A DNA stretch of 62,876 nt, the filler included. It is 4 parts of 4 records of this genome, joined end to end, with 100 filler letters (N's around TTAATTAATTAA, not from the genome) between each part and the next. Parts side by side here need not be neighbours in the genome. Positions count along the whole stretch, not along the records: positions 33,489 to 57,681 come from SRR31156797_41657; 3 more parts are not named here. One strand, 5' to 3'. The notes beneath the pieces were generated by a model. It was given only the letters and a program-made list of their open reading frames with translations. It was not told where the DNA came from and ran no database searches. Position 1 is the first letter of the stretch. Each line of letters opens with the position of its first letter. Positions 35,185 to 57,781 of this stretch are shown here, piece by piece. A program made the translations under genes and the position numbers.

Positions 35185-35619
35185 TCAGGGAAGAGGCCTT
35201 TGCAGAAGATAATCTATACAAAACCAGATAAACGCAGGCAGCAGGAAAACACCAATAAACAGCCAACCCCATCGTCTCTCACCAACCACCCACATGAGCA
35301 CCAGCATCAGCAAAGGGGCGGCTATCAAATAATTGACCGTCATCAGCCATATCCCGAGAATTCCGATAAAAAAAACCAGAAGAGCTCTTAACGCCGAAGC
35401 AAGTTCAAACTCCACCCCACCCTTTGGAAAGAGGGATTGCAGAGCACCCGAAATGATAATGATAATAGCCGCAATGGAGGGGAGAGTTCCTGGTTTCAGC
35501 CACCCATAATCAACAGATTCTGTATGGTTTGGAATCACAAAAAAGAACATGACGATTCCAAAGAACGACACAAGAATGCCTGACAGGCGATTTTGCATTG
35601 GTTCAGCGCCCTCTTTCAT
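35185..35619 (-). CDS. tctB: Tripartite tricarboxylate transporter small permease
   Basis: Small multi-TM protein ending ...LLQRPLP, between tctC and tctA; start may be 35598. Confidence 0.85.
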   Translation of the reverse strand: MKEGAEPMQNRLSGILVSFFGIVMFFFVIPNHTESVDYGWLKPGTLPSIAAIIIIISGALQSLFPKGGVEFELASALRALLVFFIGILGIWLMTVNYLIAAPLLMLVLMWVVGERRWGWLFIGVFLLPAFIWFCIDYLLQRPLP

Positions 35620-38882: not shown

Positions 38883-39564
38883 CTTTTATGTATTGCCAAT
38901 GTTCCAGACATCTACTCCTTTGTCAAGAGGTACCTGATCAGTACATATCCTGTATATGAGGAGGAAATAAACACTAGCATGATCGAAGATTGATATGACC
39001 ACGATACAGGGAGTGAGCAATTGCGGGACGACTATTCCAGTTTGTTGGTATCAAACGCTCAATCATCCATGAGGGCTTTCAATCCAGCCGAATTTGATTA
39101 GCTCAGGGGAGACGGGTTCAGTTTTTCTCCCGCGTATTTTCCAAATCACGGATGTTCTCTCCTGACAATGATCGCGTCAAAATAGAGCATACCGGCAGGC
39201 ATTTGAAACCGTGGCATGATGTCCACGTCATAATAAAGCCGCACCCGTATTCGCAGCACTGATGGTATCAGTGTCAATTACCCTCATTCCAGATATGACA
39301 TTGATAATAATTTGCACATCCCTTTGAGCCGGGAGCTTAGCAGCTCTCAGAGTAAAATACTCATTGCTGGAAAGAAACTAACTAGTCATTCGTCCAAGAG
39401 TTGGACGGATAAACGTTTTCTCTTTATCAATACCGTATTATAGCATATCCAAAAGCTATTCCCTGCGGCCATATATTTGTAATAGCCAACGCACACTAAA
39501 GAGTTTGCCGCACCACAAGATATCAAACTATATCAAGCTCATGAATCTAGGAACCGCTAATTCC

Positions 39565-41399: not shown

Positions 41400-42629
41400 A
41401 TGCGTTTTTTTCGATTTCTCAACCCAACGACTAACAGTGGGTACTGCTGGGTAATAGTTTTTGCAGGAATGCTCGCCCTTCTTGCCAGCCTCGGCCTTGG
41501 CCGTTTTTCCCTCGGGATGATGCTCCCGGGCATGGGGGAAAGTCTTGACTTAAATTATTCACAAATGGGCCTTATCTCAACCGTGAATTTCTGCGGTTAT
41601 CTGGCTGCGGTACTTTTATGCGGAAGGGTCAGCGCGATCCTGGGAGCGCGGACTTTGATATTCTTTGCTCTCTTGCTGGTGGGTATTTCGATGGTGCTGA
41701 TCGGGCTTTCCTCCAATCTGATTATCATCATTCTGCTCTATTGCTTCACAGGGGTAGGCAGTGCATTTTCCAACGTGCCGATGATGGCCTTAATTTCAAC
41801 ATGGTTTAAGCCAAGCGTCCGTGGGCGGGCTGTTGGTCTTTGCGTGATGGGTAATGGAATGGGGATACTGTTGTCTGGTAGACTTGTCCCTTTTTTAAGT
41901 GACGCAGGGCATGACTGGAGGACAAGTTGGCTATTCTTGGGAAGTTTGGTCCTTATCGTTGCCTTTATCTGCCTGGGATTAGTTCGAAATAAACCGGTAA
42001 AAAGGACGAGCATTGCAAAACAAGACAGGGAAACTGCTAACGACAGGGTCATTACTCAAAGCCAAGACAGCAAAAAGTTTATGCAGCATTGCGCTGCCAT
42101 TTACTTTCTCTTTGGCTTTACTTATGTAATCTATATTACCTTTATTGTCACCTCGTTGGTAGAAGAACGCGGGCTGACAGAATCTGCTGCCGGCCAACTT
42201 TGGTCTTTAGTTGGGATTATCAGCCTGGGATCTGGCCCTGTCCTTGGTTATCTTTCAGACAAGGCTGGTAGAAAGATCGGTCTGATGCTTGTCTTTTCTA
42301 TACAAACGGCGGCCTACCTGCTGGTGGCAATGAAATGGCCCATGATTTCTGTCTATCTATCAATGGTTCTGTACGCCTTGGTCGCTTTCAGTGTGCCGAC
42401 AATAATTGCCGCTCTGATAGGGGACAACGTTGCCCCCCAAGGCGTTGCCGCTGCATTCGGATTTGCAACTTTCTTCTTTGGTATCGGTCAAATCGCAGGA
42501 CCATCCGCAGCAGGAATTCTTGCTGAAAAAGCGGGCAGCTTTTCCATGAGCTTTTTTGCGGCGGCATCACTAACCTTTCTAGCAGTGATCCTCAGCAGCA
42601 AGTTGCCTGGCAGAAGAAAAGAGGTTTAA
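41400..42629 (+). CDS. MFS transporter (YbfB/YjiJ-like)
   Basis: GLGRFS, multiple TM helices, WF...RGRAVG, LSDKAGRK and GIGQIAGP. Confidence 0.88.
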   Translation: MRFFRFLNPTTNSGYCWVIVFAGMLALLASLGLGRFSLGMMLPGMGESLDLNYSQMGLISTVNFCGYLAAVLLCGRVSAILGARTLIFFALLLVGISMVLIGLSSNLIIIILLYCFTGVGSAFSNVPMMALISTWFKPSVRGRAVGLCVMGNGMGILLSGRLVPFLSDAGHDWRTSWLFLGSLVLIVAFICLGLVRNKPVKRTSIAKQDRETANDRVITQSQDSKKFMQHCAAIYFLFGFTYVIYITFIVTSLVEERGLTESAAGQLWSLVGIISLGSGPVLGYLSDKAGRKIGLMLVFSIQTAAYLLVAMKWPMISVYLSMVLYALVAFSVPTIIAALIGDNVAPQGVAAAFGFATFFFGIGQIAGPSAAGILAEKAGSFSMSFFAAASLTFLAVILSSKLPGRRKEV

Positions 42630-43005: not shown

Positions 43006-45192
43006 TTGAAAAAGCTTAGTAAGATGTCAGAGATACGAGGCAAGGGCAACAATCTAATGGCCCAGATTGTTGAAAATTTTCCAGTGGCCACCTTTGTTAT
43101 TGACCATAAACATCGCATTTTACACTGGAACCGGGCATGTGAAATAATCACCGGGGTTTCAGCAAAAAAGATGCTCGGCAGCACCCGAACCTGGGAGCCC
43201 TTCTATCCTGAAGAACGACCAGTGATGGCAGATCTAATAGTCGACGGCAAGCTGGATCAAATAGCGCACTATTATGCAGGCAAGTATTCCCCTTCGAAGA
43301 TCCTTGAAAATACGTGGGAAGCTGAAAGTTTTTTTTCCCATTTCCCAAATGGAGGCAAGTGGCTTGCCTTCACTGCAGCGCCTCTTACCGATGATAACGG
43401 AAACATTATCGGTGCCATTGAGACCCTTCGCGACATCACCGCTGAGAAGACATCTGAAACTGCGCTGCGTGAAAATGAGCATCTTTTAAACGAAATCATA
43501 GATGGGTCACCAGTGCCCATGTTTGTCCTTAATACCGATCACCAGGTGACCCACTGGAACCGGGCCTGTGCTGCATTAAACGGGGTCCCCGCAAAGGACA
43601 TGATTGGAACCAGTAATCAATGGAAGACTTTTTACAATGCAAAACGGCCTGTCATGGCGGATCTAGTCGTTGATGGCCAAGGAGAACAAGTACCGGAATA
43701 TTACCAAGGCATCTCTAAAAAATCGCCACTGGTCAAAGGCGCCTGGGAGGCGACTGCCCATTTCCCCCACTTTCAGTCTGGTCCCAAATGGCTCTATTTC
43801 ACGGCAGTACCGCTCCACGATCTTGACGGTCGTATTGTAGGCGCAGTTGAAACCCTCCAGGATGTGACCGAGCGCAAACAGTATGAGCAGCAACTGGAGA
43901 CAAAGGCAAATTTTGATCCCATGACAGGGCTGGCCAACCGCAACCTGCTCGACAACCGTCTTCAGCAGGCGATTATCATGGCAAAAAGAGATAACCAGCA
44001 ATTGGCCCTGCTCTTTCTTGACCTGGATAATTTCAAACAGATCAATGATACCCTTGGTCACACTGTGGGCGACCAAGTCCTCAAGGCCCTCGGCCAAAGG
44101 ATCCTCGGTTGTGTGCGAGAAGTAGATACTGTGGCCCGAATCGGGGGCGATGAATACGTGGTTCTCCTTTATGCACCAGAGAGCGAACACCAGGTTACAA
44201 CCATTGTCCGCAGGCTGCTTGATGAGGTCAGTCGTAAGCTCCCCATGGCTGGCAGACAGCTCTATAACGGCTGCAGTATAGGCATTGCCCTGTACCCAAA
44301 GGACGGCGGCACCCCAGAAACGCTGATGATGCATGCAGACACTGCCATGTACAGGGCCAAGGCCAATGACAAAGGATGGTTTCGTTACTATGCTGAAGGA
44401 TTGACCCAGGAGGCTGCCGAGTGGATAGAACTCAAGCAGGACCTCCACGACGCACTGGAAAAAAGACAACTGGAGCTTTACTACCAGCCACAGTTTGATC
44501 TCAAAACCCAAAAGGTGGTTGGTGCCGAGGCACTGGTTCGATGGAACCATCCAACCATGGGGTTGCTCCTGCCTGACAGTTTTATACCCATCGCCGAGGA
44601 AACAGGACTCATCCTTCCTTTAGGGGACTGGGTCGCTCGAACAGCAGTGGTAGAAGCAAGTACCTGGAAAAAAGAGGTGAAAAGTAACCTGCGAATATCA
44701 GTCAATGTATCGGCTAGACAATTTCGATACCAGGAATTGGTTGATATGCTTGATGGCATTCTTGAAGAAACAGGTTTTCGGGCAATAAACCTGGAGCTGG
44801 AACTGACCGAAAGCCTGGTAATGAATAACCCCCGCAGGGCTGCTGTTCGACTCAATGAGTTAAAAGACAAGGGATTTTCCCTGGCAATGGATGACTTTGG
44901 CACCGGCTATTCCAGTTTAGCCTATATACACCGTTTTCCCTTTGACATGATCAAAATAGACAAATCGTTTATCTATGATATAGGGAAAAATGCAGAAGCC
45001 GAGGCAATTGTCAGTGCCATGCTCGAGCTTGGCAAGGCGCTGGGCCTGCGTATGGTTGCAGAAGGGGTGGAAACGGAAGCGCAGAGAGATTTTCTTGCCG
45101 CCAAAGGGTGCGACGAAATCCAGGGCTTTTTATTTAGCAGGCCTTTACCGGCTGATGCCTTTTTACAGCTGCTGAAAAAAAATACCAGGTGA
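43006..45192 (+). CDS. PAS-PAS-GGDEF-EAL c-di-GMP turnover protein
   Basis: Two similar PAS domains (HWNRAC...RPVMADL); RIGGDEY; EALVRW, ELTES, DDFGTGYSS, KIDKS and EGVE; start uncertain (TTG 43006 or a downstream ATG). Confidence 0.92.
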   Translation: MKKLSKMSEIRGKGNNLMAQIVENFPVATFVIDHKHRILHWNRACEIITGVSAKKMLGSTRTWEPFYPEERPVMADLIVDGKLDQIAHYYAGKYSPSKILENTWEAESFFSHFPNGGKWLAFTAAPLTDDNGNIIGAIETLRDITAEKTSETALRENEHLLNEIIDGSPVPMFVLNTDHQVTHWNRACAALNGVPAKDMIGTSNQWKTFYNAKRPVMADLVVDGQGEQVPEYYQGISKKSPLVKGAWEATAHFPHFQSGPKWLYFTAVPLHDLDGRIVGAVETLQDVTERKQYEQQLETKANFDPMTGLANRNLLDNRLQQAIIMAKRDNQQLALLFLDLDNFKQINDTLGHTVGDQVLKALGQRILGCVREVDTVARIGGDEYVVLLYAPESEHQVTTIVRRLLDEVSRKLPMAGRQLYNGCSIGIALYPKDGGTPETLMMHADTAMYRAKANDKGWFRYYAEGLTQEAAEWIELKQDLHDALEKRQLELYYQPQFDLKTQKVVGAEALVRWNHPTMGLLLPDSFIPIAEETGLILPLGDWVARTAVVEASTWKKEVKSNLRISVNVSARQFRYQELVDMLDGILEETGFRAINLELELTESLVMNNPRRAAVRLNELKDKGFSLAMDDFGTGYSSLAYIHRFPFDMIKIDKSFIYDIGKNAEAEAIVSAMLELGKALGLRMVAEGVETEAQRDFLAAKGCDEIQGFLFSRPLPADAFLQLLKKNTR

Positions 45193-45309: not shown

Positions 45310-45750
45310 TCACAAACGGAAGCAGGCTTGAAACTGGTTGCTCTCATGTTCTCTTGAATAAGAACAAAAATCCGCCATGTGATTAACCAGAAAGATACCT
45401 AAACCACCAATCTGTCGCTTCTCCAAATCCGTGTCCAGAGATGGTGCCGGCTGCTCCAATGGATTGAAAGGCGGCCCCCAATCATGAAAGGTGACACAAA
45501 AAAACTGTTCTGAGTTGTTCGGACCTATCTCGTTACCACACCGGATTTCAACAAATGCTGTTTGTTTCGCTGCTTTGTCCTGACTATATTTTACAATATT
45601 GACAAACAGTTCTTCCACTACCAGCTCAAGCTTTATCTGGAGCACTTCCTGAGCGCCTGCCTTTTCCGCATGATACCGTACAAAGCCCTGAACCTCAGAC
45701 AGGTGAGCAATTGCAGCGGTAATACGAAACGATTCAGCAGGGGGTAACAT
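45310..45750 (-). CDS. Anti-sigma factor / Ser kinase (RsbW/SpoIIAB-like HATPase)
   Basis: EELFVNIVKYS, HDWGPPFNPL and RQIGGLGIFLV. Confidence 0.9.
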   Translation of the reverse strand: MLPPAESFRITAAIAHLSEVQGFVRYHAEKAGAQEVLQIKLELVVEELFVNIVKYSQDKAAKQTAFVEIRCGNEIGPNNSEQFFCVTFHDWGPPFNPLEQPAPSLDTDLEKRQIGGLGIFLVNHMADFCSYSREHESNQFQACFRL

Positions 45751-46079
45751 CAGGACTCGAAAGCCTCATCTCTTGTAGCTGTTACGCTGAACATCGAACC
45801 AAGGCCGGAGACCAGAAAAACCTCTTGGACCATTCCGTTCAACCCGCAAAACTGCATGGATCCCCCTGCTGCTTTTAACTTTTTGGCAGTAGAGAGTATA
45901 CTTCTTAGCCCGGCTGAACTGATATACTCAAGCTCGGAGAGGTCCACGACCAGCTTTTTTTCGGAACCGTTAATGACAAGCTGACAGTCTTTTTCAAAAG
46001 CTGCTGCAGTTACTGCGTCCAACCGACCACTTACCTTAAGCAAGGTTCCTGTCTCTCTTTTTTCGCACTCGATCTCCAT
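45750..46079 (-). CDS. STAS anti-anti-sigma factor (RsbV/SpoIIAA-like)
   Basis: GRLDA and VDLSELEYISSAGLR; start MEIECEK after RBS AGGAGAG; stop overlaps the anti-sigma start. Confidence 0.92.
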   Translation of the reverse strand: MEIECEKRETGTLLKVSGRLDAVTAAAFEKDCQLVINGSEKKLVVDLSELEYISSAGLRSILSTAKKLKAAGGSMQFCGLNGMVQEVFLVSGLGSMFSVTATRDEAFES

Positions 46080-46092
46080 CACGACTCTCCTC

Positions 46093-48027
46093 TTATTTAT
46101 TTTCTTTGCCAAGAAACTGTATGGCAAGCATAGTTATATCATCAGATTGTTCAGCGCCACCGGCAAATGTTTTAAGAGATGCGTTAATGGTACTGATAAA
46201 TGATTCTGCAGAAAGACCATTACACTCATTTATAATTTCAACCAATCGTTTCTCAGAGTAAAGTTGCTGATCGTTGTCCATGGCTTCTGTTACCCCATCA
46301 GTATAAACAAGCAGTGTATCACCTGGACGCATGTTCATTGATTGGGTCGTATAACTTGTCCCCTCCACTATTCCAGCCAAAAGCTCATTTAAGGGAGTAA
46401 TCCACTCTGCCTCACCGTTTGCAGGAAGAAGAAGCGGCGGACTATGTCCTGCACTGGCATAACGCACTTCCCCTGTACCAATATCGATCACCGCTAAAAA
46501 AAGCGTTACGAACATACAGGCTTCATTGTCTTCGGCCAATTCGTTATTGACTTTGGCAAGCACCTCACCCGGTTCAAGGCCCTGTTCTGCAACCACCTTA
46601 AGCAGGGTTTTGGTGACTGCCATAAAAAAAGCTGCCGGTACGCCCTTGCCCGACACATCTCCAACTACAAAACAAAACTGGTTTTCATCAATGAAGAAAA
46701 AATCGTAGAGATCGCCTCCGACCTCCCGCGCCGGTTCAATGGATGCGTAAATATCAAATTCGGTTCGATCGGGAAATGCAGGAAAGAGCTTGGGCAGAAT
46801 ACTCATCTGGATGTCATGGGCAATGCGAAGCTCAGACTCGATTCGCTCCTTAACTGCTGTTGTTTCTTTCAGGTTGGCAATGTAGTGCTGCAAGGATTCC
46901 CGCATTGTTGCAATTGAGGTCGCCAGTTCGCCAACTTCATCCTTAGACGAAATTTTGGGTAAATTTGCCTCCAGGTTGCCAGAAGAAATTTCATTTACAG
47001 ATGCGGTGAGACTCCTGAGCGGATGGGTAATTCTGCATGCAAGATAGATAAGCAGCAGTGCAAGAGCTGCAAAACCAAGCGCTCCAAAAAGAACTACTTC
47101 TCTAGTTAAACCTGCTACCTCAGCAAACAGTTCCTTTTTGGGAAAGACAACACCGATGGACCAATGCTGCTTAGGTAAAGCGGTAAAATATAAAAAGCTG
47201 TCTCCAGTTAGCGGCAGATTATCGAGTTCCACAACACCCGACTCCCCGGCAACCATCCGGCGGCCTATTTCTCGGATAAGTGGCTGCTCAAGGTTCTCTG
47301 CAGACGTAAAAACAGTTTCATTCATGACAATCTTTGTATCGGGATGAGCAATGTAGGTGCCGTAGCGAGACAACATGAAGACATACCCCATCTCGTTGAT
47401 GTTAATCACTGAGAGCATCTGCTGTATCCAGTCCAGAGAAATGTCTGCTGTGACAACCCCGGTAAGCAGCTCCTGCCTTTCATGCTTGCGGTAAAAGGGT
47501 ATTGAGTAGGTGGTCATTAACTGATGCCCTCCCCCTGTATCGTAGTAAGGTTCAGTCCAGACCGGTTTTTTTAACTCTCTTGCCAACTGGTACCAGTCCA
47601 TATAAAAATACTGATACTCAGGCCCCCCCAGGTTCGTAAACAGTGTTTCCTTTTGCCAACGATAATGATAGGGGGCGTAATACTTTTGTTCAAAACTAAA
47701 ACCGTGAGGTTCAAATGCTATGGCAGTGCCGAATATCTCTGGATTATGTAAAAGCACCTGTGCACCCAGATCATAAAGCCGCTTTTCAGTCAGGCTTCCG
47801 TCTTCCAGCGAAAATGCGACGGAACCAGCGACTTTTTCAACAGTATTAAGCACTGCAGTGATCCGCTCTGCTATTGATGCGGCCAAGAGCGTTCCGCGAT
47901 CCTCAGCAAGTTGTTCGATGATCCCTCTGGAGACGATGTAGTTATATACGACGATAACCGAAAAAATCAGGGTCGAGAAAACAAGAGTGAGTGACGCCAG
48001 TCGAAAAGCTATACCGTTAACTCTCAT
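46093..48027 (-). CDS. Membrane sensor phosphatase: Cache-HAMP-SpoIIE (PP2C)
   Basis: TM1; Cache (DWYQ...WTEPYYD...DISL); TM2; HAMP (DEVGEL); PP2C motifs EVGGDLYD, GDVSGKG, YTDGVTEA and SDDIT. Confidence 0.93.
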   Translation of the reverse strand: MRVNGIAFRLASLTLVFSTLIFSVIVVYNYIVSRGIIEQLAEDRGTLLAASIAERITAVLNTVEKVAGSVAFSLEDGSLTEKRLYDLGAQVLLHNPEIFGTAIAFEPHGFSFEQKYYAPYHYRWQKETLFTNLGGPEYQYFYMDWYQLARELKKPVWTEPYYDTGGGHQLMTTYSIPFYRKHERQELLTGVVTADISLDWIQQMLSVININEMGYVFMLSRYGTYIAHPDTKIVMNETVFTSAENLEQPLIREIGRRMVAGESGVVELDNLPLTGDSFLYFTALPKQHWSIGVVFPKKELFAEVAGLTREVVLFGALGFAALALLLIYLACRITHPLRSLTASVNEISSGNLEANLPKISSKDEVGELATSIATMRESLQHYIANLKETTAVKERIESELRIAHDIQMSILPKLFPAFPDRTEFDIYASIEPAREVGGDLYDFFFIDENQFCFVVGDVSGKGVPAAFFMAVTKTLLKVVAEQGLEPGEVLAKVNNELAEDNEACMFVTLFLAVIDIGTGEVRYASAGHSPPLLLPANGEAEWITPLNELLAGIVEGTSYTTQSMNMRPGDTLLVYTDGVTEAMDNDQQLYSEKRLVEIINECNGLSAESFISTINASLKTFAGGAEQSDDITMLAIQFLGKENK

Positions 48028-49034
48028 TGCAGGCGCCCTTTATAAAAATCTGGAAATGCTATTTTCGACTGCACGTTTTCAGTGAACTGAAGTGCTTGTT
48101 GTGTCCTGCTAAAATCAGCCTGCTTGAGTATGGTATCGATCTGGGTTTGCCCTTCCGGCACAAGGAGATCTTTCATCCGCTCTAGCATCCAGCTCTGATG
48201 CGCTCTGTTTGCCCTGACATTGCTCTCTTTCATAATACGAAGCATTGTATCAATGGTCTCCTCTGGATGGGCAAAGGCGTAGAGCCATCCTTTGGCAGAA
48301 GCCGTTACCAGCGCATTCGATGTCTCAGGGGATTTTGTATAAGTCGACTCCAAACAATAAATACCATCTTCCGGCAGATTCAGACCAAGATCACTGAAAA
48401 AAAAGATGGTCATTTCATCCTGATTTAATCCATACGACAGCAAGCGGTGATACTCATTGTACCACATGGCTAAAACCGCATCGAGGCCACCGCGCATGAA
48501 CAACTCAAACGATGGAGATTGACGAACAAGAGTCACGTTCAGGTTCTGACGTTTAAAAAGTGCCTTAGGTTGAAGACTAAAATCATCTCCCCAGGTGCCA
48601 ATTTTAGCACCATCAAGATCCTGAAGAGTAGTAATGTTGGAATCTTTACGGGCAATAAGCATCAGGGCGGAACGTTGTACAATCTGTCCAACATTGACAA
48701 GAGGAAGGTCTTGCAAGCGCAGCTGCAAGGCATCAGAGAGGAATGCAGTACAAAAAGCAGTTTTCCCCTGACCAAGCTTTTCACATGCATGTCTGTCTGC
48801 ATTCCCTGGAATAATCTCTACATCCAAGCCGTGCGCAGCATACATACCCTTTTCGCGGGCCATGTAGTAACCTGCAAATTGGGCCTGCGGATACCATTGC
48901 AGTGTGAGTTGAACTTTTTGCCTGGTTGCAGCAGCAAAAGAAGTGGTAGCAGCAATAAAAACAAAGAGAGTTACCAGCAGAGCATGCTTTTGCAGCGTAT
49001 GACCAAGTACAAAAAAATATCGATTCCTCAACAT
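48024..49034 (-). CDS. Periplasmic substrate-binding protein, NMT1/THI5-like
   Basis: Signal peptide; LQWYPQAQFAGYYMAREKGMY...GLDV, AMWYNE and KGWLYAF; no permease or ATPase adjacent. Confidence 0.88.
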   Translation of the reverse strand: MLRNRYFFVLGHTLQKHALLVTLFVFIAATTSFAAATRQKVQLTLQWYPQAQFAGYYMAREKGMYAAHGLDVEIIPGNADRHACEKLGQGKTAFCTAFLSDALQLRLQDLPLVNVGQIVQRSALMLIARKDSNITTLQDLDGAKIGTWGDDFSLQPKALFKRQNLNVTLVRQSPSFELFMRGGLDAVLAMWYNEYHRLLSYGLNQDEMTIFFFSDLGLNLPEDGIYCLESTYTKSPETSNALVTASAKGWLYAFAHPEETIDTMLRIMKESNVRANRAHQSWMLERMKDLLVPEGQTQIDTILKQADFSRTQQALQFTENVQSKIAFPDFYKGRLQ

Positions 49035-50413
49035 TTCGAAAAGTCCTTGATATACGCCTGCATTTTCTTTCCTCTGACAGCTCGCCGTGGTTCTGCTTCA
49101 ACGATGGAGAATGTAATATTTTCTATCCCATGATTAGCGAGCTGGTCAGTCACTGCTCCGGTAATTTGCTGTTTCACTGCACCAGAAAGAGCGTCTTCAA
49201 GATACTGCACACGCATGATTAACTCAGTGGAGCTAGGTTGAATGAATTGAAAAATGGAAATACCGGGGATATCACAGACCGCATTAAGGAATACGATGGG
49301 AGAAAGACGAACCAGCCCCTTGGGACCATCAAATGCTGGCATATCATCTGTTCTGCCCAAAATATCCACATAGGGAAAGGGAAGTCCACATCCACACTGT
49401 TCTTCATAGAGGATAACACAATCGTCCACACGGTATCGGATAATCGGCTGTACTGCATTCATCAAGTTTGTGACCAATATTGCATCGGACATGGTACCTG
49501 GGGAAACAGGGTTCCCTTCCTTGTCAATAGGTTCAACAATTATCCAATCGGAGTTTAAATGCATGTGGCCGTGATCACACAACAGTGAGATTTCTCCGCC
49601 CTCCGTGCTGCAGAACACATTTCCCACTGGACAGGAAAACCGTTTCTCTATCAGTAATCGCGTTTCATCTGTAAGCTGCTCAGCACTGCACAAAATAGCC
49701 TTTGGCTCGATATGCAGCCGACCCTGGTGTTGTTCGCCTGACAAAATCCGCAAAAAGGAAGGGTAGCCGGTTATCAATTCAGGTTGAAACTTGTTCAGTC
49801 TGCGAACCATTTCCTCAATGGGCTCACCGATGGATAACAGCTCCATGGTACCGGTGATGCCCTCCTCTTCCAATGCCACTCTTCTTTTTTCATAGGCACT
49901 GAATGCGGCATGATGGCCACCAGTAGCAAGGACACTGGCAAATTTGGTCTTTTTCTCCATTATTTCGGGAAAATCTTTAAGCAGAGGACTGTGGTACAGC
50001 CTGTCCAACATAATAGCGCCATTGATGTTGACATGACGGCTGTCGCGCAACATCCGCAGAGGCTCCCCAGTCGTGCCTGATGTGGTGGATACACTGTACT
50101 TATCCATAAAAAGGCTGCCCAACGTCCCCAGATCCTGAATGAATGCTGCAAGTTGTTCCTCAGAAAAATCCGGATCGGTTACCCAATCCTGCAAACAGGC
50201 AGTAAGCTCCTGCTTGGTAACAGCCGGTAATTTGTCAAGCGTCGGCTTTTCCGGTAGCCCTGCATACCTATTCCGATAAAACAAAGAATTTTCGCGGGCG
50301 TAAGTAACGATATCGTGCAAACGCTCCTGTTGCAGCTGAGCTATTTCATCACGGGACAGAAGGTCTGCTTGACGAACAAGTTCGACTGCTTTTTCCAAAG
50401 TTATGCTTCTCAT
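49028..50413 (-). CDS. Phenylacetate-CoA ligase / coenzyme F390 synthetase-like adenylate-forming enzyme
   Basis: SLFYR...LPAVTK, TTSGTTGEP, GYPS, CSAE, STEGG, PIIRY and GRTDD. Confidence 0.85.
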   Translation of the reverse strand: MRSITLEKAVELVRQADLLSRDEIAQLQQERLHDIVTYARENSLFYRNRYAGLPEKPTLDKLPAVTKQELTACLQDWVTDPDFSEEQLAAFIQDLGTLGSLFMDKYSVSTTSGTTGEPLRMLRDSRHVNINGAIMLDRLYHSPLLKDFPEIMEKKTKFASVLATGGHHAAFSAYEKRRVALEEEGITGTMELLSIGEPIEEMVRRLNKFQPELITGYPSFLRILSGEQHQGRLHIEPKAILCSAEQLTDETRLLIEKRFSCPVGNVFCSTEGGEISLLCDHGHMHLNSDWIIVEPIDKEGNPVSPGTMSDAILVTNLMNAVQPIIRYRVDDCVILYEEQCGCGLPFPYVDILGRTDDMPAFDGPKGLVRLSPIVFLNAVCDIPGISIFQFIQPSSTELIMRVQYLEDALSGAVKQQITGAVTDQLANHGIENITFSIVEAEPRRAVRGKKMQAYIKDFSKC

Positions 50414-50486
50414 TTACTCTCCTTCAAACATGCAGGATATCTTACACTAACGCCTGTACTGTTTGGGTATTCTTCCATGGTTGCAG

Positions 50487-52244
50487 TTACTTTCGATTAA
50501 AAGTGAGGGTATAGTTGTTGAAGCCTATTGTCTGGGAAAATCCAGGCTCATAGTTGCCATCGGCAGCCAGAACAAGACGCTGCTGATTATGCAAAGTTAT
50601 ATCTTTGTTATTGTCACGCAATGATGCCACAATCTTATCCTCATAGACATCCAGCATCATATCTATAGTGTTTCCTGTCATCTGGGGAAACGCACGTGTT
50701 ATCCCGCTCACTGTTTCTTCTATGGCAGCAACCACCTTCACTGCTATTTTATCTTCAACCCTAAGGTGTTCCATAAATACTGCAAACTGGTCCAGGCTTT
50801 TTGAGAGAGCCGAATCACTTGTTTTACAGGTCGTTTCAGACCTGCCGCATTGTTGCAGCTGTTCATGGTCGAGCAGCAAGGGGTTCCGGTATTTTTCAGG
50901 GTACGTCTTTTTCAGATAGAGGTAACAGGAAATGACCATGAGTATGGTGACCACTTCTGCCAGTGAAAAGGCAACCCAAACACCTGAAGCTCCTAAGGGG
51001 ATTGACATGGCAAGAGCAAGAGGAATAACAGATACCCCCTGAACAAATGAGATGGCTGCGGACAGTTTCGTGCGACCGATGGTCATGTAGTAGTACATAG
51101 AAAGGAAGCTGATACTGGTCCCCACCAAACTTAAAGAAAAAAGGCGGATGGCAGGAATACCTTCTGCTACATCTGCGGCATGGTGAATACCGAATATGTG
51201 CAAAATAACCCCAGGAAACAACTCCAACAGCAAGGTTGCAGCAAGGCTTGCAATCAAGAGTGTTTTTAATGCTCGCCGTACCACAAAATACACACCCTGA
51301 AAATCTGCTTCCCCATACAGGACCCCAACTATGGGGGTCATGGCCTGAGCTGCACCGGAAATAAACATAGAGACAAAAGAAAGGCAGGATAAACACACCG
51401 AAAAGGCTACCATGCCCGACTTACCAGCCACAGCCAGAATAATATGGTTAACAAAGAGAATCTTGAAAGTGATCAGGATGCTACCCATGGCTGCAGGGGA
51501 ACCTGTTGCCACAATCTTACTGACACGGGCCAATACCTCTGGCGCACGAATCAGCGTGTTCGGCTTAAACCGAAGCGTTCTTTTTCGACTAAAAACATAC
51601 AGCAGCAGAAAAGCCCCACCAATCACGTAACCGCACACCGTGGCAAGTGAAGAGCCTGCTATTCCCATTTTGAGCGGCCCCATAAAGACCAGGTCCAAAG
51701 CAAGATTAACCAGGTTGGAAACAATAAGGATGGTCGACGCCAATTTCACCCGTGCATCAACCCTTAAGCAATAGGCAAGCCCAGGAACGGTAATAATCAA
51801 GGGAGTGCCGTAGATGAGCACATGAACATAGGATTTAACCAGGGGGCGAAGGGAGGGCTCCCGAGTGAGTAGACGGGTGATATCATCAACAAAGACAACC
51901 TGTCCGGCCAACAAAAAGAGGCTCACCACAACCATAGCAAACAAAGCAGTGGTGAAAATATCACTTGCATAATCACTCTCTCTCCGTCCTTTGGCAACAG
52001 ATATCATGGTTGCAGCGCCCAACCCGAAACAGACAGCCATTGTATTGTAAAGCATAATAACAGGCATAACCAGATTGACTGCGGCAAGAGCTTCGGCACC
52101 CAGCATATTGCCGACAATGATACTGTCGACCACAATGGACATGGTCAGGGTCATCGCCATCAAAATGGTTGGGATAAAGAACTCCCAATATTTCTTATCC
52201 AGCAGGCCGCTCTGTCTGCTGGAGCTATAATTCATTGATTCCAT
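50487..52244 (-). CDS. MATE efflux transporter with a C-terminal degenerate HATPase (anti-sigma-like) extension
   Basis: VDSIIVGNMLG..ALAAV, NLALDLVFM..MGIAGSSLAT and GVWVAF; soluble tail of ~130 aa with AIEETVSGI and LRDN. Confidence 0.85.
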   Translation of the reverse strand: MESMNYSSSRQSGLLDKKYWEFFIPTILMAMTLTMSIVVDSIIVGNMLGAEALAAVNLVMPVIMLYNTMAVCFGLGAATMISVAKGRRESDYASDIFTTALFAMVVVSLFLLAGQVVFVDDITRLLTREPSLRPLVKSYVHVLIYGTPLIITVPGLAYCLRVDARVKLASTILIVSNLVNLALDLVFMGPLKMGIAGSSLATVCGYVIGGAFLLLYVFSRKRTLRFKPNTLIRAPEVLARVSKIVATGSPAAMGSILITFKILFVNHIILAVAGKSGMVAFSVCLSCLSFVSMFISGAAQAMTPIVGVLYGEADFQGVYFVVRRALKTLLIASLAATLLLELFPGVILHIFGIHHAADVAEGIPAIRLFSLSLVGTSISFLSMYYYMTIGRTKLSAAISFVQGVSVIPLALAMSIPLGASGVWVAFSLAEVVTILMVISCYLYLKKTYPEKYRNPLLLDHEQLQQCGRSETTCKTSDSALSKSLDQFAVFMEHLRVEDKIAVKVVAAIEETVSGITRAFPQMTGNTIDMMLDVYEDKIVASLRDNNKDITLHNQQRLVLAADGNYEPGFSQTIGFNNYTLTFNRK

Positions 52245-52281
52245 ATTTATTTATCTTAACAAAGCCCCTGTTAGTTTTATG

Positions 52282-55200
52282 CTAGCCCGCCACAAAAAGA
52301 CGTTCTGCCTGGTCAGTCTTTATGTTGGCAAGCTTAAGCAGGGCCAGCCCCAGTTGAGGATGGCGAATGTTCAACTCACGGATGTCTTCAGGTTTAAGCT
52401 GAAAAACAAAGGTATCATCCAGTGATTCTACAGAGTTAATGGCATGTGTATCTTCAATCACCGCCTCTTCGCCCAGGCAGGAACCTGGTCCACCAACACG
52501 GATTGTACCAATCCAGCCGTTGGCATTATGACGATAGGTTTCCACCATCCCTTCAACAACAAAGCGAATACCGTCTACCGGTGCTTGCTCTTGCTGCAGC
52601 AGGGTTGTTTCGCCAAAATGCTCCGGCTTTATACGAGCTGCAATATCTGTTCGAGCTTCATCATCTAAAAGAGAGAATCCCGGGATGGCGGCAAGTTTTT
52701 GAGTTCGATCCTGTAACGCGTGCTGCACAAATAAGCGGAGATCTACGGGTTCGGGGTTTTTCCAGGTAAAACCGCACCGCTCCAAAAGGCTGGCTGTACG
52801 TTCAACCCTGATAACAGTACTCGTACTTAAAGGATTAGAAAGCCAATCCTGCCAGCCTAGATGGAGCAAGAGACGCTCAATGTACTCATCAAAACCGGGG
52901 CACCCTGCGTGTTCAGCAAAAAAATCGACAAAATCATCAAAGCGGAGTCTGTCTACCCGCAACCCGAGCTCTTTGGAGGACAGGGCTTCTGAAAGGGAGA
53001 GTAACTGTGGATTATGGATGTGAAAAGTTTGCCCTGCCAGCCCTGGTCTTGTCATGAGTGTGACAATCGCCTTTGCAGACTGGTCGACATAGGACATGTT
53101 GCGGACATCGGTGAGATCAGGAGCCACCCCAAGGTTCACATAGGCACGGATCTGCTGATAGAAGGCGTTATCATCTACATTACGTTGAAAAACGCCTGTT
53201 TCAGAATCGCAGGCAATATTACCGGCACGATATATATTCACCGGCAACCCTTCATCTCTCAATCTCTGTAAAACGACTTCAGCCTGCAGCTTGGAACGAA
53301 CGTACAAGTTGCGTGGTTCCTGTCCTATATCAACATCAAATTCGGTAAACAATGCTTGACTTCGCTCTTTTATTTTCCCAGAACCAATGGAGGTGGTGGA
53401 GATGTGATGTAACGATTTTGGTCTGCCCTTGCGGGCAAAAAAGGACAAATTCTCCACACTGGTAATGTTAGCTGCCACAAAAACGTCCCACTCTCCGTAG
53501 TGACTTGTTAAAGCCGCCGAGTGCAGAATGGTATCGACATCACATTCAAGTCGATCATATACAGCCTCATCCATTTCAAACCCTGGTACGGAAAGATCAC
53601 CGGTCAACACCTCTACCCGCCCGCCACTCTCTTCTTTTAAATTTCTACCGAATCGATCCTGATAATGGTCGGCCAAGCGTTGGTAGGCTGCCTTGTCGTC
53701 ATGACCACGTACAACAGCTGTTATATGTGCACCAGTATGATGGAGCAACTCGCGCAGCAGGTAGATGCCAAGGGTTCCTGTTCCACCAGTGAGCAGGACA
53801 TGGTCAAACGTTTTGACACTTTCAGCATCAAGCGCACCGTCGGCCTGACATGCCTGCCTATACCCCTGTACTTGCGACTGAAAAACTGCATCCTCTTTTG
53901 ACTTCCCGGAGAGTTTCTTTAGGCCAAGCAAGCGGGCTGAACGCCCTATCTCAGCCTCACGAAAATGGCTCGCCTGATCCGCAATGGTGGTGTGTGAAAA
54001 GAGATCAGAAGCTGAGATATCAAAGGTTTCACTCAGATCAGCTAACAGTGTAATGGCACTTAATGAATCACCACCAATATCATAGAAGGAATCAAACAAG
54101 CCAAACCCCTTATGACCTAGTACTCTCTCCCACGCCTGAGCGATACGAACCTCCTGTGGATTACGCGGCTCAAGGGGGCCTGTTGCGGAGGTGGTAATTT
54201 CAGGACGCGGCAGCTTGCCGCGATCAACCTTGCCGTTGGGATTCAGCGTCATCTTCTCCAGCTGTACAAAGTACGCTGGCACCATGTACTCCGGCAGCTC
54301 AGCCTTGAGCAATTCTTTCACCACCCCCATATCCAGCTTTGATGCGGCAGTACAGTATGCAGCCAGTGCCTTATTGCCGCTGGGTTCCTCCAAGGCAACG
54401 ACTACACAGTCGAGCACCTGATCGAAGGTCTTGATCTGTGCCTCAATCTCTCCTGGCTCGACCCGGTAGCCGCGAATCTTAACCTGAAAGTCCATTCGAC
54501 CGATAAAATCAAGAGTACCGTCATCCAGCCATTTCCCCTTATCACCGCTACGAAACATTCGTTGTCCCGGATGGAACGGATCGTCAACAAAATGTTTGTC
54601 TGTAAGTTCCTTACGGTTAAGGTATCCACGACCTACCTGGACGCCAGCTACGCAAATCTCTCCCGGTACCCCGATGGGACAAAGGTGCCCCTTAGCATCA
54701 AGAATGTATATCCTGGTATTCTTGACTGGCGAGCCCACAGGCGGCTTCATCATGACATCCTGTACATCGTAGCTCAGACAGGCCATGGTTGTTTCACTCG
54801 GCCCATATTCGTTGGTAAGCCTAAAATCCCCAAGGTGGTAAGATTTAAGTCTATCCCCCCCCACCACCAGATATTTGAGGGACTCCATTGAACACATCCG
54901 CATGAACTGTTCAGCAAACTGGGTTGGGAAATGAGCGTTGGTGATATGATTGTCCACAAAATAGGCATCCAGTTCCTTGGGAGAGCGACGCAGTTCTTCG
55001 GCAATGATGTGCAAGGTTGCCCCGGATACCAGCGGTGCAAATATCTGCACAACCGAGACATCAAAGCTGAAGGCTGCAAATGCTGCACAGCCAGATTCAG
55101 GCGAAATGCAGTGGTGCTCGGCATACCAGTCGATAAAGTTCACCATCGACTGATGTTCGATGAGCACCCCCTTGGGCTTGCCAGTTGAGCCAGAGGTGAA

Positions 55201-57681
55201 GATACAATATGCCAGAGCATCCCCCCCTTCTGCCAAATAAGGATTTGTATCATCACTTGGCAGATCGCCGTCCATGGCGACAGCTGCACAATCAAATTGT
55301 AATGCTTCCAATTGTTCCTGAGCACCTACAATACAGGGAGCATTGGTATCCTTTAAAATGAACGCCACACGTTCAGACGGATAATGGGCATCCAACCCTA
55401 CATACGCTGAGCCGGACTTTAACGCTGCTAACATTCCAACCACTGACCAAGTGGAGCGGTCTGCCACCACCGCCACAATACGATCTCTTCCCCCTCCCAA
55501 TTTTGCAATGCCCCTGGCTGCACGATTAGCAAGCCTATTTAGCTCTTCATAAGTAAGGCTGCCATTTTCTGCCTTGACTGCGATATGGTCGGGCCTGAGC
55601 TTGGCATGCGTTTCAATGACCTGACACACCGTTTTCCAAGAAGGCGGGGGAGTGGCAGGAGGGTTAAAACGATTGAGCAACGCGTTACGCTCCTCTGACC
55701 CGAGGATATTGATACTGCCCACGGCAATGTCCGGTGTTTTGGCAACGGCCTCAAGGACGGTGCAAAGGTGCCCTGTTAATCGGGCAATGGTTTGCCTGCG
55801 GTAGAGTGATGTCCTGTAATCCACCTCAATGATAAGTGTTTCACCCTGTTCTTCCGCAGCTATGGACAGATCGAACTTGGCAGTATCCGTATGCAAGGGA
55901 AGGACATCGGCGATCAACCCACTTACTTGATAATGATCCTCTGCTCCTATGTTGCGCATAACAAAGTTAATATCAAACATGGGATGTCTAACTGGCCCAC
56001 GGTTGGCCCCAAGATATTCGTAAAGGCTGGAAATCGGATACGAGCCATGTTCGTGAATCGCAAGCATCTGCTGTCGCATCTCAAGCAGCAGGTTGGCAAA
56101 GCTCTTGCTGCTTTCCGGGCGCACCCGTGTCGGTAAGGTGCGAACAAACATCCCTACTACTCCGGCGGTTCCTGCCTGATCGCGCCCACTCATACTTGTA
56201 CCGATACAGATATCCTCACTATCTGACCAGCGGCTAGCTAGAATGCCGATAGATGCCATAAAGATCTGATGCAGGGTTGCGCCATACTTCTTGGCCAGCT
56301 TTCGCAAAGCATCAGTTGCCTGGGCGTCAAGTTGGTGACGATAGACTGCACCTGCAAAATCCTGATGGCCGGGACGGGTAAAATCTGTTGGCAATTCGGC
56401 TTCAGGTGGTCCGGTGAAGAGCCCGCGCCAGAAAGATTCGTGCTTGATTTTAATCTGTTCCTCTCTAACTGCCTCCCAGACTGCCACATCCTTCTGCTGT
56501 ATTCGCAGCGATTCGAGCTGTTCTTGATTATAGAGCGCAAACAGTTCACGTAGATAAATACCAACGGATACACCATCAAAAACGATATGATGGAAGTCAA
56601 GGAGTAACCAGTGGCGTCCATCTGTATGGGCTACCAGCTTCGCCTTCATGAGAGGAGGATGCGACAGGTTAAAGGGTTGTGAAAAACCGACGGCAAACTT
56701 TTGTGGATCGTTACTGCTGGTTTGTTCATAATCTAGCTTGAGATGCGCGTTTTTTACCACGCGCTGTACGCACCGCCCCTCTTGAATGACAAAGGAGGTA
56801 CGTAGTGCCTCATGCCGCTCAAGCAACTCAAGCAGGGCGTCGGAAAGTCGCCTTTGATCCAGTTTGCCTGTAAAAGCGATGCATATCGGCATATTGTATG
56901 CCACCCCGATTCCCTTCATGCGGTTAAGTAAAAAAAGTTGCTGCTGGGACACGGAGGCAGGATAGGTTTCAGCCGCGTCTGCCGGTGATATTTTCTCATC
57001 AACATGTCCACTCTCAAGCCGAGAAGCCATAAGCCGGGGCGTAGAGCATTCAAAGATCGCAGCCAGTTCAACGTCACGACCAAGCTTTTTGCCAATGATA
57101 ACCTGCAAAACTACCGCACGAAGGGAGTCTCCCCCACTTTGGAAAAAATCAGCGTCAGCACTTACCTGATTTTTCTCCAGTACCTCACCCCATATTGCGC
57201 ACAAACTCGATTCCAATTCTGTTTCAGGAGCCGTATATTCCTGTTGATTCTCTTTCAGAGCTTTGGGTTCAGGTAATTCTTTTCGATCAATTTTGCCGCT
57301 TGGGTTTATGGGCATGGCATCGAGCCGCAGCATGTGGGAGGGCACCATAAACGATGGGATCCGACCGTCTAAACCAGCCAACACCTTTTCGGGCTCAGCA
57401 TCCCCGCAGATGTAGCCGCAAAGGTACACGTGGCCAGCTCTGTCTTTAAAATCTCCCACTGCGGCTTCTTTGACCCCGTCTATGGAAAGCATCGCATTTT
57501 CGATTTCGCCAAGTTCGATCCTATATCCACGCAATTTCACTTGTCGGTCTATCCGACCGAGGTGTCGGATCACACCATCCGGTCTCCAACAGGCAAGATC
57601 ACCGGTATGATACATGGTTTCTTGATGGTAAAACGGATCAGGCACAAAACACTCCGCATTTTTTTCTTCACGCTTATGGTA
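52282..57681 (-). CDS. Non-ribosomal peptide synthetase, 5'-truncated: (A)-T-C-A-T-R(thioester reductase)-cNMP-binding domain
   Basis: Frame is open to the gap (YHKREEKNAECFVPDPF...). A-domain end (YHTGD, VKLRGYRIELGE); T GGDSL (~57125); C HHIVFDG (~56580); A TSGSTGKPKG (~55185); T GGDSL (~54065); R TGGTGTLG (~53780) and YVRSK; CAP-type domain at the C-terminus. Confidence 0.93.
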   Translation of the reverse strand, partial: YHKREEKNAECFVPDPFYHQETMYHTGDLACWRPDGVIRHLGRIDRQVKLRGYRIELGEIENAMLSIDGVKEAAVGDFKDRAGHVYLCGYICGDAEPEKVLAGLDGRIPSFMVPSHMLRLDAMPINPSGKIDRKELPEPKALKENQQEYTAPETELESSLCAIWGEVLEKNQVSADADFFQSGGDSLRAVVLQVIIGKKLGRDVELAAIFECSTPRLMASRLESGHVDEKISPADAAETYPASVSQQQLFLLNRMKGIGVAYNMPICIAFTGKLDQRRLSDALLELLERHEALRTSFVIQEGRCVQRVVKNAHLKLDYEQTSSNDPQKFAVGFSQPFNLSHPPLMKAKLVAHTDGRHWLLLDFHHIVFDGVSVGIYLRELFALYNQEQLESLRIQQKDVAVWEAVREEQIKIKHESFWRGLFTGPPEAELPTDFTRPGHQDFAGAVYRHQLDAQATDALRKLAKKYGATLHQIFMASIGILASRWSDSEDICIGTSMSGRDQAGTAGVVGMFVRTLPTRVRPESSKSFANLLLEMRQQMLAIHEHGSYPISSLYEYLGANRGPVRHPMFDINFVMRNIGAEDHYQVSGLIADVLPLHTDTAKFDLSIAAEEQGETLIIEVDYRTSLYRRQTIARLTGHLCTVLEAVAKTPDIAVGSINILGSEERNALLNRFNPPATPPPSWKTVCQVIETHAKLRPDHIAVKAENGSLTYEELNRLANRAARGIAKLGGGRDRIVAVVADRSTWSVVGMLAALKSGSAYVGLDAHYPSERVAFILKDTNAPCIVGAQEQLEALQFDCAAVAMDGDLPSDDTNPYLAEGGDALAYCIFTSGSTGKPKGVLIEHQSMVNFIDWYAEHHCISPESGCAAFAAFSFDVSVVQIFAPLVSGATLHIIAEELRRSPKELDAYFVDNHITNAHFPTQFAEQFMRMCSMESLKYLVVGGDRLKSYHLGDFRLTNEYGPSETTMACLSYDVQDVMMKPPVGSPVKNTRIYILDAKGHLCPIGVPGEICVAGVQVGRGYLNRKELTDKHFVDDPFHPGQRMFRSGDKGKWLDDGTLDFIGRMDFQVKIRGYRVEPGEIEAQIKTFDQVLDCVVVALEEPSGNKALAAYCTAASKLDMGVVKELLKAELPEYMVPAYFVQLEKMTLNPNGKVDRGKLPRPEITTSATGPLEPRNPQEVRIAQAWERVLGHKGFGLFDSFYDIGGDSLSAITLLADLSETFDISASDLFSHTTIADQASHFREAEIGRSARLLGLKKLSGKSKEDAVFQSQVQGYRQACQADGALDAESVKTFDHVLLTGGTGTLGIYLLRELLHHTGAHITAVVRGHDDKAAYQRLADHYQDRFGRNLKEESGGRVEVLTGDLSVPGFEMDEAVYDRLECDVDTILHSAALTSHYGEWDVFVAANITSVENLSFFARKGRPKSLHHISTTSIGSGKIKERSQALFTEFDVDIGQEPRNLYVRSKLQAEVVLQRLRDEGLPVNIYRAGNIACDSETGVFQRNVDDNAFYQQIRAYVNLGVAPDLTDVRNMSYVDQSAKAIVTLMTRPGLAGQTFHIHNPQLLSLSEALSSKELGLRVDRLRFDDFVDFFAEHAGCPGFDEYIERLLLHLGWQDWLSNPLSTSTVIRVERTASLLERCGFTWKNPEPVDLRLFVQHALQDRTQKLAAIPGFSLLDDEARTDIAARIKPEHFGETTLLQQEQAPVDGIRFVVEGMVETYRHNANGWIGTIRVGGPGSCLGEEAVIEDTHAINSVESLDDTFVFQLKPEDIRELNIRHPQLGLALLKLANIKTDQAERLFVAG

Positions 57682-57781
57682 NNNNNNNNNNNNNNNNNNN
57701 NNNNNNNNNNNNNNNNNNNNNNNNNTTAATTAATTAANNNNNNNNNNNNNNNNNNNNNNNNNNNNNNNNNNNNNNNNNNNN
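57682..57781. other. Artificial contig junction
   Basis: N-run with TTAATTAATTAA linker. Confidence 0.97.

Follow-up and report, generated by a model that had tools for sequence, protein, structure and literature searches.

A reductase-terminated peptide synthetase cluster of anaerobes with an RsbW-like domain on its exporter and a recurrently included partner switch

Introduction

Nonribosomal peptide synthetases (NRPSs) of anaerobic bacteria that end in a reductase domain make protease-inhibiting peptide aldehydes, and we know of no account of how producers time and survive the making of these electrophilic compounds. Here we analyze a gene cluster of this type on a 62,876-nucleotide stretch of DNA (hereafter “the window”), in which an NRPS, a MATE exporter, a PaaK-like ligase, a solute-binding protein and three signaling proteins (a PP2C phosphatase, a STAS protein and an RsbW-like kinase) are encoded on one strand, in a Thermodesulfobacteriota-like host resembling a sulfate-reducing anaerobe. 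The NRPS is of a known kind, the reductase-terminated dipeptide-aldehyde synthetases of anaerobes, and the cluster is a new regulatory variant of that kind: the regulatory layer seen here is an anti-sigma-kinase-like domain on the exporter, often accompanied by a set of phosphatase, antagonist and kinase belonging to the cluster.

Dipeptide-aldehyde/pyrazinone NRPS clusters of gut Clostridia were reportedly described by Guo et al. in 2017 (Cell 168:517), and the rup/ruminopeptin cluster of Ruminococcus bromii is said to have been described by Schneider and Balskus in 2018. Such clusters resemble the one here in having a two-module NRPS of an anaerobe that ends in a thioester reductase; the cluster here differs in its Thermodesulfobacteriota-like host and in an NRPS with a cyclic-nucleotide (cNMP)-binding-like domain. 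The aureusimine synthetase AusA/PznA of Staphylococcus aureus, with adenylation (A), thiolation (T), condensation (C) and reductase (R) domains in the order A-T-C-A-T-R, works with a phosphopantetheinyl transferase as its sole partner. It provides the best NCBIfam model for the window NRPS (NF047350) and shares reductase release with it; the alignment runs from T1 to R (model positions 898–2295 of 2373) at 990.3 bits, below the equivalog cut-off of 2500, the scored window protein being truncated. Relatives of the window NRPS differ from AusA/PznA in adding an N-terminal condensation domain (HHILADG in locus L012) and the C-terminal cNMP-like domain.

On the signaling side, the RsbU-RsbV-RsbW and SpoIIE-SpoIIAA-SpoIIAB systems of Bacillota combine, like the trio here, a PP2C phosphatase, a STAS protein with a serine motif and a GHKL serine kinase. 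They differ from the present case, which has no sigma factor gene in the vicinity, a dCache-HAMP membrane sensor as its phosphatase, and a second RsbW-like domain, kinase-dead by its sequence, on a transporter. SiaABCD of Pseudomonas aeruginosa likewise has a membrane PP2C with HAMP, a kinase, a STAS-like protein and a non-sigma output (here a proposed one); its STAS-like protein, when free, binds an effector enzyme instead of releasing a sigma factor. That effector is a diguanylate cyclase, whereas the effector proposed here is the MATE-fused domain. SiaA (NF038263) is the best NCBIfam match of our phosphatase, which at 83.7 bits against a cut-off of 700 is not a member, and the fused domain has the SiaB-SiaC complex (6kko) among its fold matches. 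BtrUVW and HsbR/HsbA are further partner switches with non-sigma outputs. As for the exporter, ClbM of the colibactin NRPS-polyketide synthase cluster is also a MATE encoded within a cluster for a reactive product, and its structure (4z3n) turns up among those matching the membrane part of our MATE in fold; the solved ClbM chain has 431 residues as compared with 585 in the window protein, and presumably, to judge from this length, lacks a C-terminal regulatory domain. A literature search with subscription articles outside its coverage found no report of a MATE-HATPase_c_2 fusion, of partner switching within an NRPS cluster, of an NRPS with a cNMP-binding domain, or of a Desulfovibrio with a peptide aldehyde.

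Results and Discussion

Seven minus-strand open reading frames (ORFs) occupy positions 45310–57681, and their coordinates, Pfam and NCBIfam domains and directly read junctions agree with the genes, order and spacing given in the initial annotation. The NRPS and MATE genes are 37 bp apart, and MATE and ligase 73 bp; the ligase gene overlaps that of the binding protein by 7 nt (ATGTTGA), the binding protein and PP2C genes share an ATGA overlap, PP2C and STAS are separated by 13 bp with an AGGAG-like site, and STAS runs into RsbW through a TGATG overlap. The same seven-gene order recurs in L001 and L012 (Desulforhopalus vacuolatus DSM 9700) and, to the end of its contig, in L003 (Desulfocapsa), so that the arrangement is not due to chance. 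In D. vacuolatus, the genes from NRPS to RsbW are bounded by a divergently transcribed BREX defence system ahead of the NRPS and by Tct transporter genes behind RsbW, which places the start of the unit at the NRPS and its end at RsbW. A promoter and terminator scan of 44.9–57.7 kb returned 17 sites of each kind (~8.5 expected), none conspicuous at the junctions, and an Rfam scan of the window gave no match.

The exporter (50487..52244, minus strand) is a 585-aa protein with 11–12 hydrophobic helices, matched by MatE in two stretches (3.8e-33) and showing 11 hydropathy segments, some of which are merged pairs. An AlphaFold2 (AF2) model of the whole protein (32-row alignment, mean predicted local distance difference test [pLDDT] 85.7) has PfMATE 3wbn as its top Foldseek match (TM-score 0.89; 0.86–0.89 across PfMATE structures). 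It is ~140 residues longer than usual, and beyond the last helix the model forms a beta-alpha-alpha-beta-beta-alpha-beta-beta domain (aa 446–585; 50490..50909, minus strand), assigned as an RsbW/SpoIIAB-like, HATPase_c_2-type cytoplasmic domain from hhalign and from AF2/Foldseek. The window copy itself has no PF13581 match, which 8 of 12 aligned homologues do have in their extensions (E ≤ 0.1); Pfam calls HATPase_c_2 at the MATE C-terminus of L004 (1e-14), L011, L013, L014 and L021, and on the divergently placed MATE of L033 (6e-12). A profile of the 12 extensions matches SpoIIAB structures at 4e-5 and aligns with the profile of the stand-alone RsbW proteins of the cluster over 123 columns (hhalign, 98.9% probability, E 1.1e-17), and jackhmmer searches started from the window RsbW recover MATE ORFs, as does the reverse search the RsbW ORFs. 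Modeled alone (31 rows, pLDDT 86.3), the domain is closest in the PDB to UsfX (8ih8), RsbW (6m37) and SpoIIAB (1th8, 1tid, 1l0o), with E-values of ~2e-6 to 8e-6 and TM-scores of 0.6–0.7, and a language-model Atlas, taken as a lead only, agrees. By sequence and predicted fold, then, the MATE C-terminus is a member of the HATPase_c_2 (RsbW/SpoIIAB) family. The initial annotation, whose “make” (NRPS) and “export” (MATE) readings are reasonable, had overlooked this domain, which ties the switch to the cluster.

The fusion is a regular feature of the family: 56 of 58 MATE genes in core loci (defined below) bear the RsbW-like domain, and in a large protein database all 19 longer matches to the domain profile are MatE proteins of 445–612 aa, 14 of them with a precomputed PF13581 assignment. 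Such proteins are called “efflux pump/anti-sigma regulatory factor” in automatic annotation by JGI, and Ruminococcus sp. is one named source of a MatE-HATPase_c_2 protein. In the window copy, the parts that serve ATP binding in this family (N-box, G1 and lid) are altered, with Gly for the N-box Asn, D-N-N in place of the G1 D-x-G, and a lid of 11 residues vs. 16–23 in other clades. In the window clade the domain is thus most likely a pseudokinase, predicted to be able to bind a partner but not to phosphorylate it. We considered whether degeneration of the domain is limited to loci that also have a stand-alone RsbW and rejected this, as motif loss does not track the presence of the switch. In an Acetobacterium-type copy of the cluster (L023:903-2540, L024:8286-9923), a sodium:dicarboxylate symporter protein (SDF, 8e-54) adjoins the ligase, and its N-terminal ~130 aa, where Pfam calls no domain, are matched by the RsbW profile search; if so, the cluster family would include RsbW-like domains on two kinds of transporter.

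To place the cluster among its relatives, the ligase gene was taken as the marker of the family, and an alignment of 24 ligases was used to fetch 80 genome and 80 metagenome loci with 10-kb flanks. Ligase homologues are 52–91% identical in Desulforhopalus, Desulfocapsa, Maridesulfovibrio and Desulfovibrio and ~40% identical in Clostridia, and cluster relatives also occur in Christensenella and on human-gut metagenome contigs. Of the 42 genome loci with at least 35% ligase identity, 38 have NRPS matches adjoining the ligase (the four without are L008, L009, L010 and the 1.4-kb L039), as compared with none of the 38 loci with more distant ligases. These neighborhoods show that the NRPS, the MATE-RsbW-like fusion and the PaaK-like ligase make up a conserved, co-inherited core. 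The ligase tree departs from taxonomy, with copies from Syntrophomonadaceae and Proteocatella placed beside the Desulfovibrionaceae/Desulfocapsaceae clade, and copies from gut Desulfovibrio (L028, L029, L038) within a Bacillota clade, which suggests that the cluster has spread by transfer among anaerobes.

One variant of the core was seen in Desulfovibrio sp. PCE-4 (L009:8226-12402), where the MATE fusion and ligase are followed by a FemAB-type GNAT protein (Acetyltransf_6) with no NRPS nearby; an NRPS with a cNMP-like domain is encoded elsewhere on the same chromosome (P0154). The MATE-ligase pair may work with other amide-forming enzymes.

The association of the signaling genes with this core was evaluated by an iterated profile search over all ORFs of 161 loci (window included), in which loci with an NRPS or a MATE fusion were counted as core (83 loci) and the others as non-core (78 loci). 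PP2C, STAS and RsbW (stand-alone or fused to PP2C) were all present in 14 of the 83 core loci and in none of the 78 non-core loci, and at least two of them in 17 core loci and in two non-core loci (L053, and L106, a probable member of the family in truncated form). Short loci are common in the core set, and genome and metagenome loci are partly the same contig (e.g., L120 is L022), so that these counts are of loci and not of independent events. Switch-bearing loci fall in at least five separate ligase clades from three phyla in a quick maximum-likelihood tree (Desulfocapsaceae-like, a Gastranaerophilaceae metagenome-assembled genome [MAG], a Clostridiales MAG, Christensenella, and L030/L033), with varied gene orders: MATE and ligase flank STAS and RsbW in L040 and, by ORF coordinates, in L111; the ligase follows MATE in L113 and is itself followed by STAS, PP2C and RsbW; and PP2C is fused to RsbW in L030, L114 and L139. 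The genomes of L033 (G004) and L040 (G005) have two STAS matches each, one of them in the cluster, and in G005 the cluster RsbW is the only HATPase_c_2 match above cut-off. The co-occurrence check suggested in the initial annotation thus did not refute it, as the signaling genes accompany the NRPS/MATE/ligase core repeatedly, in more than one gene order and in several phyla.

A tree was also built from 17 STAS domains of the cluster family together with 20 others from five of the genomes. The label “cluster” needs only two changes on it, vs. 12.5 in shuffles (0 of 500 shuffles as low), and all 13 cluster STAS from outside the Desulfocapsaceae form one group (support 90). The four Desulfocapsaceae cluster STAS form a second group, whose sister is the STAS of a dnaK-adjoining STAS-RsbW pair in a Desulfovibrionaceae genome. 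With two such groups, at least two recruitments of the switch are probable, after which it would have traveled with the cluster, a tentative conclusion given a short domain and a quick tree. At the level of gene content and phylogeny, these analyses show the recurrent inclusion of PP2C, STAS and RsbW in the cluster to be non-random.

The three switch proteins carry the sequence hallmarks of RsbU/V/W modules and look active. The phosphatase (46093..48027, minus strand) is predicted to consist of a transmembrane (TM) segment, a periplasmic dCache domain, a second TM segment, HAMP and a SpoIIE-family PP2C domain (Pfam; SpoIIE, 7.3e-53), with TM segments at residues 5–33 and 304–322 and intact GGD, GDVSGKG, TDG and DDIT motifs, which we take to be metal-binding. 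Its sensor part varies by lineage (dCache-HAMP, 7–8 TM, 2 TM, or HAMP only). The STAS protein (45750..46079, minus strand; PF01740 3.2e-17) scores 74.5 bits against TIGR00377 (cut-off 53.45) and starts at an ATG, a mechanical ORF call beginning instead with the TTG of position 46127. All 10 aligned STAS proteins of the cluster family share an unchanged Y-I-S-S-A-G-L-R, whose S-S-A-G motif presumably holds the phosphorylated serine. The stand-alone RsbW-like serine kinase/anti-sigma-type protein (45310..45750, minus strand; PF13581, HATPase_c_2, 5.3e-20) retains E46/E47, N51, D90, G92 and G115–G118, invariant in 10 sequences (E..N, D-x-G, GGxG). No sigma-70 family domain was found among the ORFs of the window contig, nor a sigma factor gene in the Pfam-scanned relatives L012, L004, L021, L026, L027, L030, L033, L040, L014, L028, L011, L013, L009 and L161, and a sigma-54 pattern occurred upstream of the D. 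vacuolatus NRPS as often as expected (8 matches vs. 8.2). A sigma factor is thus not the obvious output, and the cognate sigma factor gene that an RsbU/V/W-type module would be expected to have in its locus is missing from those scanned.

Two variants of the switch genes were seen among the metagenomic loci. In L081:11390-13500, a close relative (ligase 75% identical), the NRPS, MATE, ligase, STAS and RsbW are kept, ~30 residues of the binding protein are left, and the PP2C protein lacks residues 326–612 (HAMP and catalytic parts), with only the dCache part and the last 32 residues remaining. In L114:11371-15036 and L139 (a human-gut metagenome contig), the genes for a 7-TM PP2C-HATPase_c_2 fusion, STAS and a soluble protein of 474 aa come in this order, next to the ligase and a MATE fusion; the soluble protein has HATPase_c_2 at its N-terminus and, behind it, 350 aa with no assigned domain.

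The NRPS (52282..57681, minus strand) is a fragment consisting of the C-terminal part of A1 followed by T-C-A-T-R and the cNMP-binding-like domain, and is open into a run of Ns. At least four contigs have been strung together in the window, a pseudomolecule whose joints are made of N runs flanking a six-frame stop linker, TTAATTAATTAA, which occurs three times (26515–26526, 33433–33444 and 57726–57737; 0.01 expected). The contig piece bearing the cluster spans ~33.5 to 57.68 kb and ends at the joint at 57682..57781 (an unstranded feature: N run, linker at 57726–57737, N run). Because this joint is artificial, the sequence past it is not necessarily adjacent in the genome, and gene neighborhoods that span joints of the window are not real. 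The NRPS is hence truncated, as initially annotated, at a contig joint rather than at a gap, and a tblastn search with the L012 NRPS found its 5′ part nowhere else in the window.

The fragment corresponds to residues 808–2606 of the 2607-aa L012 protein (74% identity over 1799 aa, tblastn), which is complete and has two C domains (HHILADG, HHIVFDG), two A, two T, R and the cNMP-like domain. Its Pfam matches are AMP-binding_C, PP-binding, Condensation (1.7e-103), AMP-binding (2.9e-67), PP-binding and NAD_binding_4 (8.5e-43), and it has HHIVFDG, two GGDSL carrier serines, and the GGTGTLG and YVRSK motifs that, with the NAD_binding_4 match, identify a terminal thioester reductase, with a score slightly below cut-off for TIGR01746 (191.3 vs. 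213.35 bits). The initial annotation had suggested a small, possibly acylated, peptide aldehyde or a cyclic imine/pyrazinone as the product. The NRPSs of complete relatives are C-A-T-C-A-T-R, and a first condensation domain with HHxxxDG together with a terminal R domain makes an N-acyl dipeptide aldehyde the likely product; N-acylation would leave no free amine for cyclisation to a pyrazinone. Two reviews describe N-acylated dipeptide aldehydes of anaerobe NRPSs as stable and protease-inhibiting (PMC8210680, PMC12327764). The best PDB neighbor of the A domain is LgrA module 1, and in the window and L012 alike Glu follows the A5 Asn. Reading the A-domain substrate from the specificity code (motif anchors, PDB neighbors) did not place all positions reliably, and we claim no substrate.

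The cNMP_binding (CAP effector)-like domain at the NRPS C-terminus (aa 1677–1758; 52372..52617, minus strand; PF00027) was also missed by the initial domain reading. It scores 38.7 bits in the window (E 9.6e-10; cut-off 27.5), 40.6 in L012 and 36.2 in L004, and is kept in 11 aligned relatives. All 32 database matches to the region are NRPSs with PF00027, those with names being from Thermodesulfobacteriota, and by this sequence comparison the NRPS-cNMP fusion is a separate clade. The canonical phosphate-binding motif of cNMP-binding domains is Arg-Ser/Thr-Ala. In the 11-sequence alignment, placed by eye against this general motif, G-E-E ... N-S-V-E stands where G-E ... R-[ST]-A is expected, the cassette Arg being absent, and with N-S-V in place of Arg-Ser/Thr-Ala canonical binding of cAMP or cGMP is doubtful.

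The ligase (49028..50413, minus strand; 461 aa) is an adenylate-forming enzyme similar to PaaK and F390 synthetase, with no Pfam match at 1e-3. Its scores are below cut-off both for TIGR02304 (F390-synthetase-related; 1e-29, 103.8 vs. 251.9 bits) and for TIGR02155 (PaaK; 8.6e-11, 41 vs. 646.3 bits), and its superfamily placement comes from PDB PaaK-like ligases (6siw, 1.1e-14) and an invariant TSGTTGxP motif. The NMT1/SsuA-type solute-binding protein (48024..49034, minus strand; PF09084 2.1e-39) has an N-terminal signal or anchor, with a hydrophobic segment at aa 17–37 followed by A-A-A. It was found in five loci only (window, L001, L003, L012 and, as a remnant, L081), all of the Desulfocapsaceae-like lineage.

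From these elements, we propose, with slightly less than an even chance of being right, that the cluster is one conserved, horizontally spread biosynthetic unit with a partner switch dedicated to it, and that this switch probably acts on the exporter and not on a sigma factor. In such a scheme, the ligase would activate a carboxylic acid that the first condensation domain loads onto the first amino acid, the NRPS would release an N-acyl dipeptide as its aldehyde, and MATE would export the product. The binding protein and the dCache domain would detect a periplasmic cue, which would turn on PP2C and leave STAS dephosphorylated; free STAS would then be shared between the soluble kinase, which re-phosphorylates and so resets it, and the pseudokinase domain of the exporter, which would be the output. 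The target of the switch would then be export itself or a complex of exporter and synthetase, controlled at the post-translational level, with no sigma factor in between. The partitioning of STAS to the exporter domain is the least secure step, since most cluster copies hold the fused domain with no STAS nearby.

Several observations weigh against this scheme. In about two thirds or more of the core loci the MATE-fused domain occurs with no STAS, PP2C or RsbW nearby; loci such as L004–L007 and L014–L020 lack the switch and are not truncated, and their genomes have 16–17 STAS elsewhere. A cis-encoded STAS is thus not needed, and the fused domain may have another role. Of all versions of the domain, that of the window is the most degenerate and may be a vestige, and degenerate and intact versions number 10 and 6 in loci with a switch and 15 and 22 in loci without. 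L081 is, from its gene remnants, a natural erosion of the sensor arm, and the locus counts given above include duplicates between collections. At the start of the pathway, some relatives have three A domains and still keep the ligase, which makes its role as supplier of the starter uncertain. A more specific extension of the proposal is possible, if on the doubtful side: STAS would toggle between RsbW and the MATE pseudokinase, so that a periplasmic signal, relayed by the binding protein, dCache and PP2C, would gate the release of a reactive N-acyl dipeptide aldehyde within seconds and without transcription; the cNMP-like domain of the NRPS would add a second control at the level of the enzyme, and “MATE-RsbW” pumps would serve anaerobes in general for the regulated export of electrophilic natural products.

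Among other explanations, the three proteins with all RsbU/V/W-type hallmarks could form a classical switch acting on an unlinked sigma factor, held by RsbW or by the MATE domain and freed by the cue to drive transcription of the cluster and possibly of other genes. The closest structures to the fused domain are indeed anti-sigma factors bound to sigma or to an antagonist, and the nearest non-cluster STAS-RsbW pair (54 and 40% identity), the one adjoining dnaK in a Desulfovibrionaceae genome, resembles a general stress module; but no sigma factor gene was found in the contig or in any relative scanned, and the RsbW-like domain on 56 of 58 exporters would be left unexplained, so that we consider this rather unlikely. 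That the signaling genes are merely an unrelated module downstream of the biosynthetic ones is highly improbable. Thermodesulfobacteriota genomes are rich in STAS genes (7, 17 and 16 in three genomes) and most cluster copies have no switch, as accidental neighbors would predict, yet the switch genes accompany the core in five or more ligase clades and in three phyla, in varied orders, the full trio is absent from all 78 non-core loci, each of two genomes with just two STAS genes has one of them in the cluster, start and stop codons overlap, and the exporter bears a domain of the same family.

The initial annotation had instead suggested an autoinducer loop, with the exported product as ligand of the binding protein or dCache and the phosphorylation state of STAS reporting it. 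This concerns the input only and is compatible with the exporter as output; the genes for sensor, exporter and synthetase form a single unit with translational coupling, the cluster has a dedicated switch, and the sensor domain lies on the periplasmic side, where an exported product would be. Against it, the binding protein is confined to one lineage, with a remnant among its five loci, the sensor parts of the phosphatase differ among lineages, and many cluster copies have no sensor at all. Sensor variety and a one-lineage binding protein speak mildly against a common product-sensing design, and we regard the loop as unlikely.

If the switch does act on the pump, as in the exporter-output scheme, transporters would join the short list of non-sigma outputs of partner switches, and there would be a handle for turning on silent clusters of this kind. 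The full seven-gene version in a cultured type strain, D. vacuolatus DSM 9700 (L012), makes the proposal directly testable.

The surroundings of the cluster were also inspected. Just downstream of RsbW in the window, on the opposite strand, lie a B12-binding radical SAM gene (39505–41340, plus strand), an MFS transporter gene (41400–42629, plus strand) and a PAS-PAS-GGDEF-EAL gene (43006–45192, plus strand), the last of which converges on the end of the cluster. Further along, an arylsulfotransferase-like gene (36641–38080, minus strand) stands beside genes for a TctCBA tripartite tricarboxylate transporter and a GntR/FCD regulator (33649–36581, minus strand), and in D. vacuolatus Tct genes directly follow the cluster as well (L012:16028-20194). 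On the other side of the D. vacuolatus cluster (L161:681-11349), the BREX system divergent from the NRPS comprises BrxA, BrxB, BrxC and a PglX-like methylase; beyond it come an AbiC-like gene and, far upstream of the NRPS, a fragment of a group II intron, which was the only Rfam match (54 bits).

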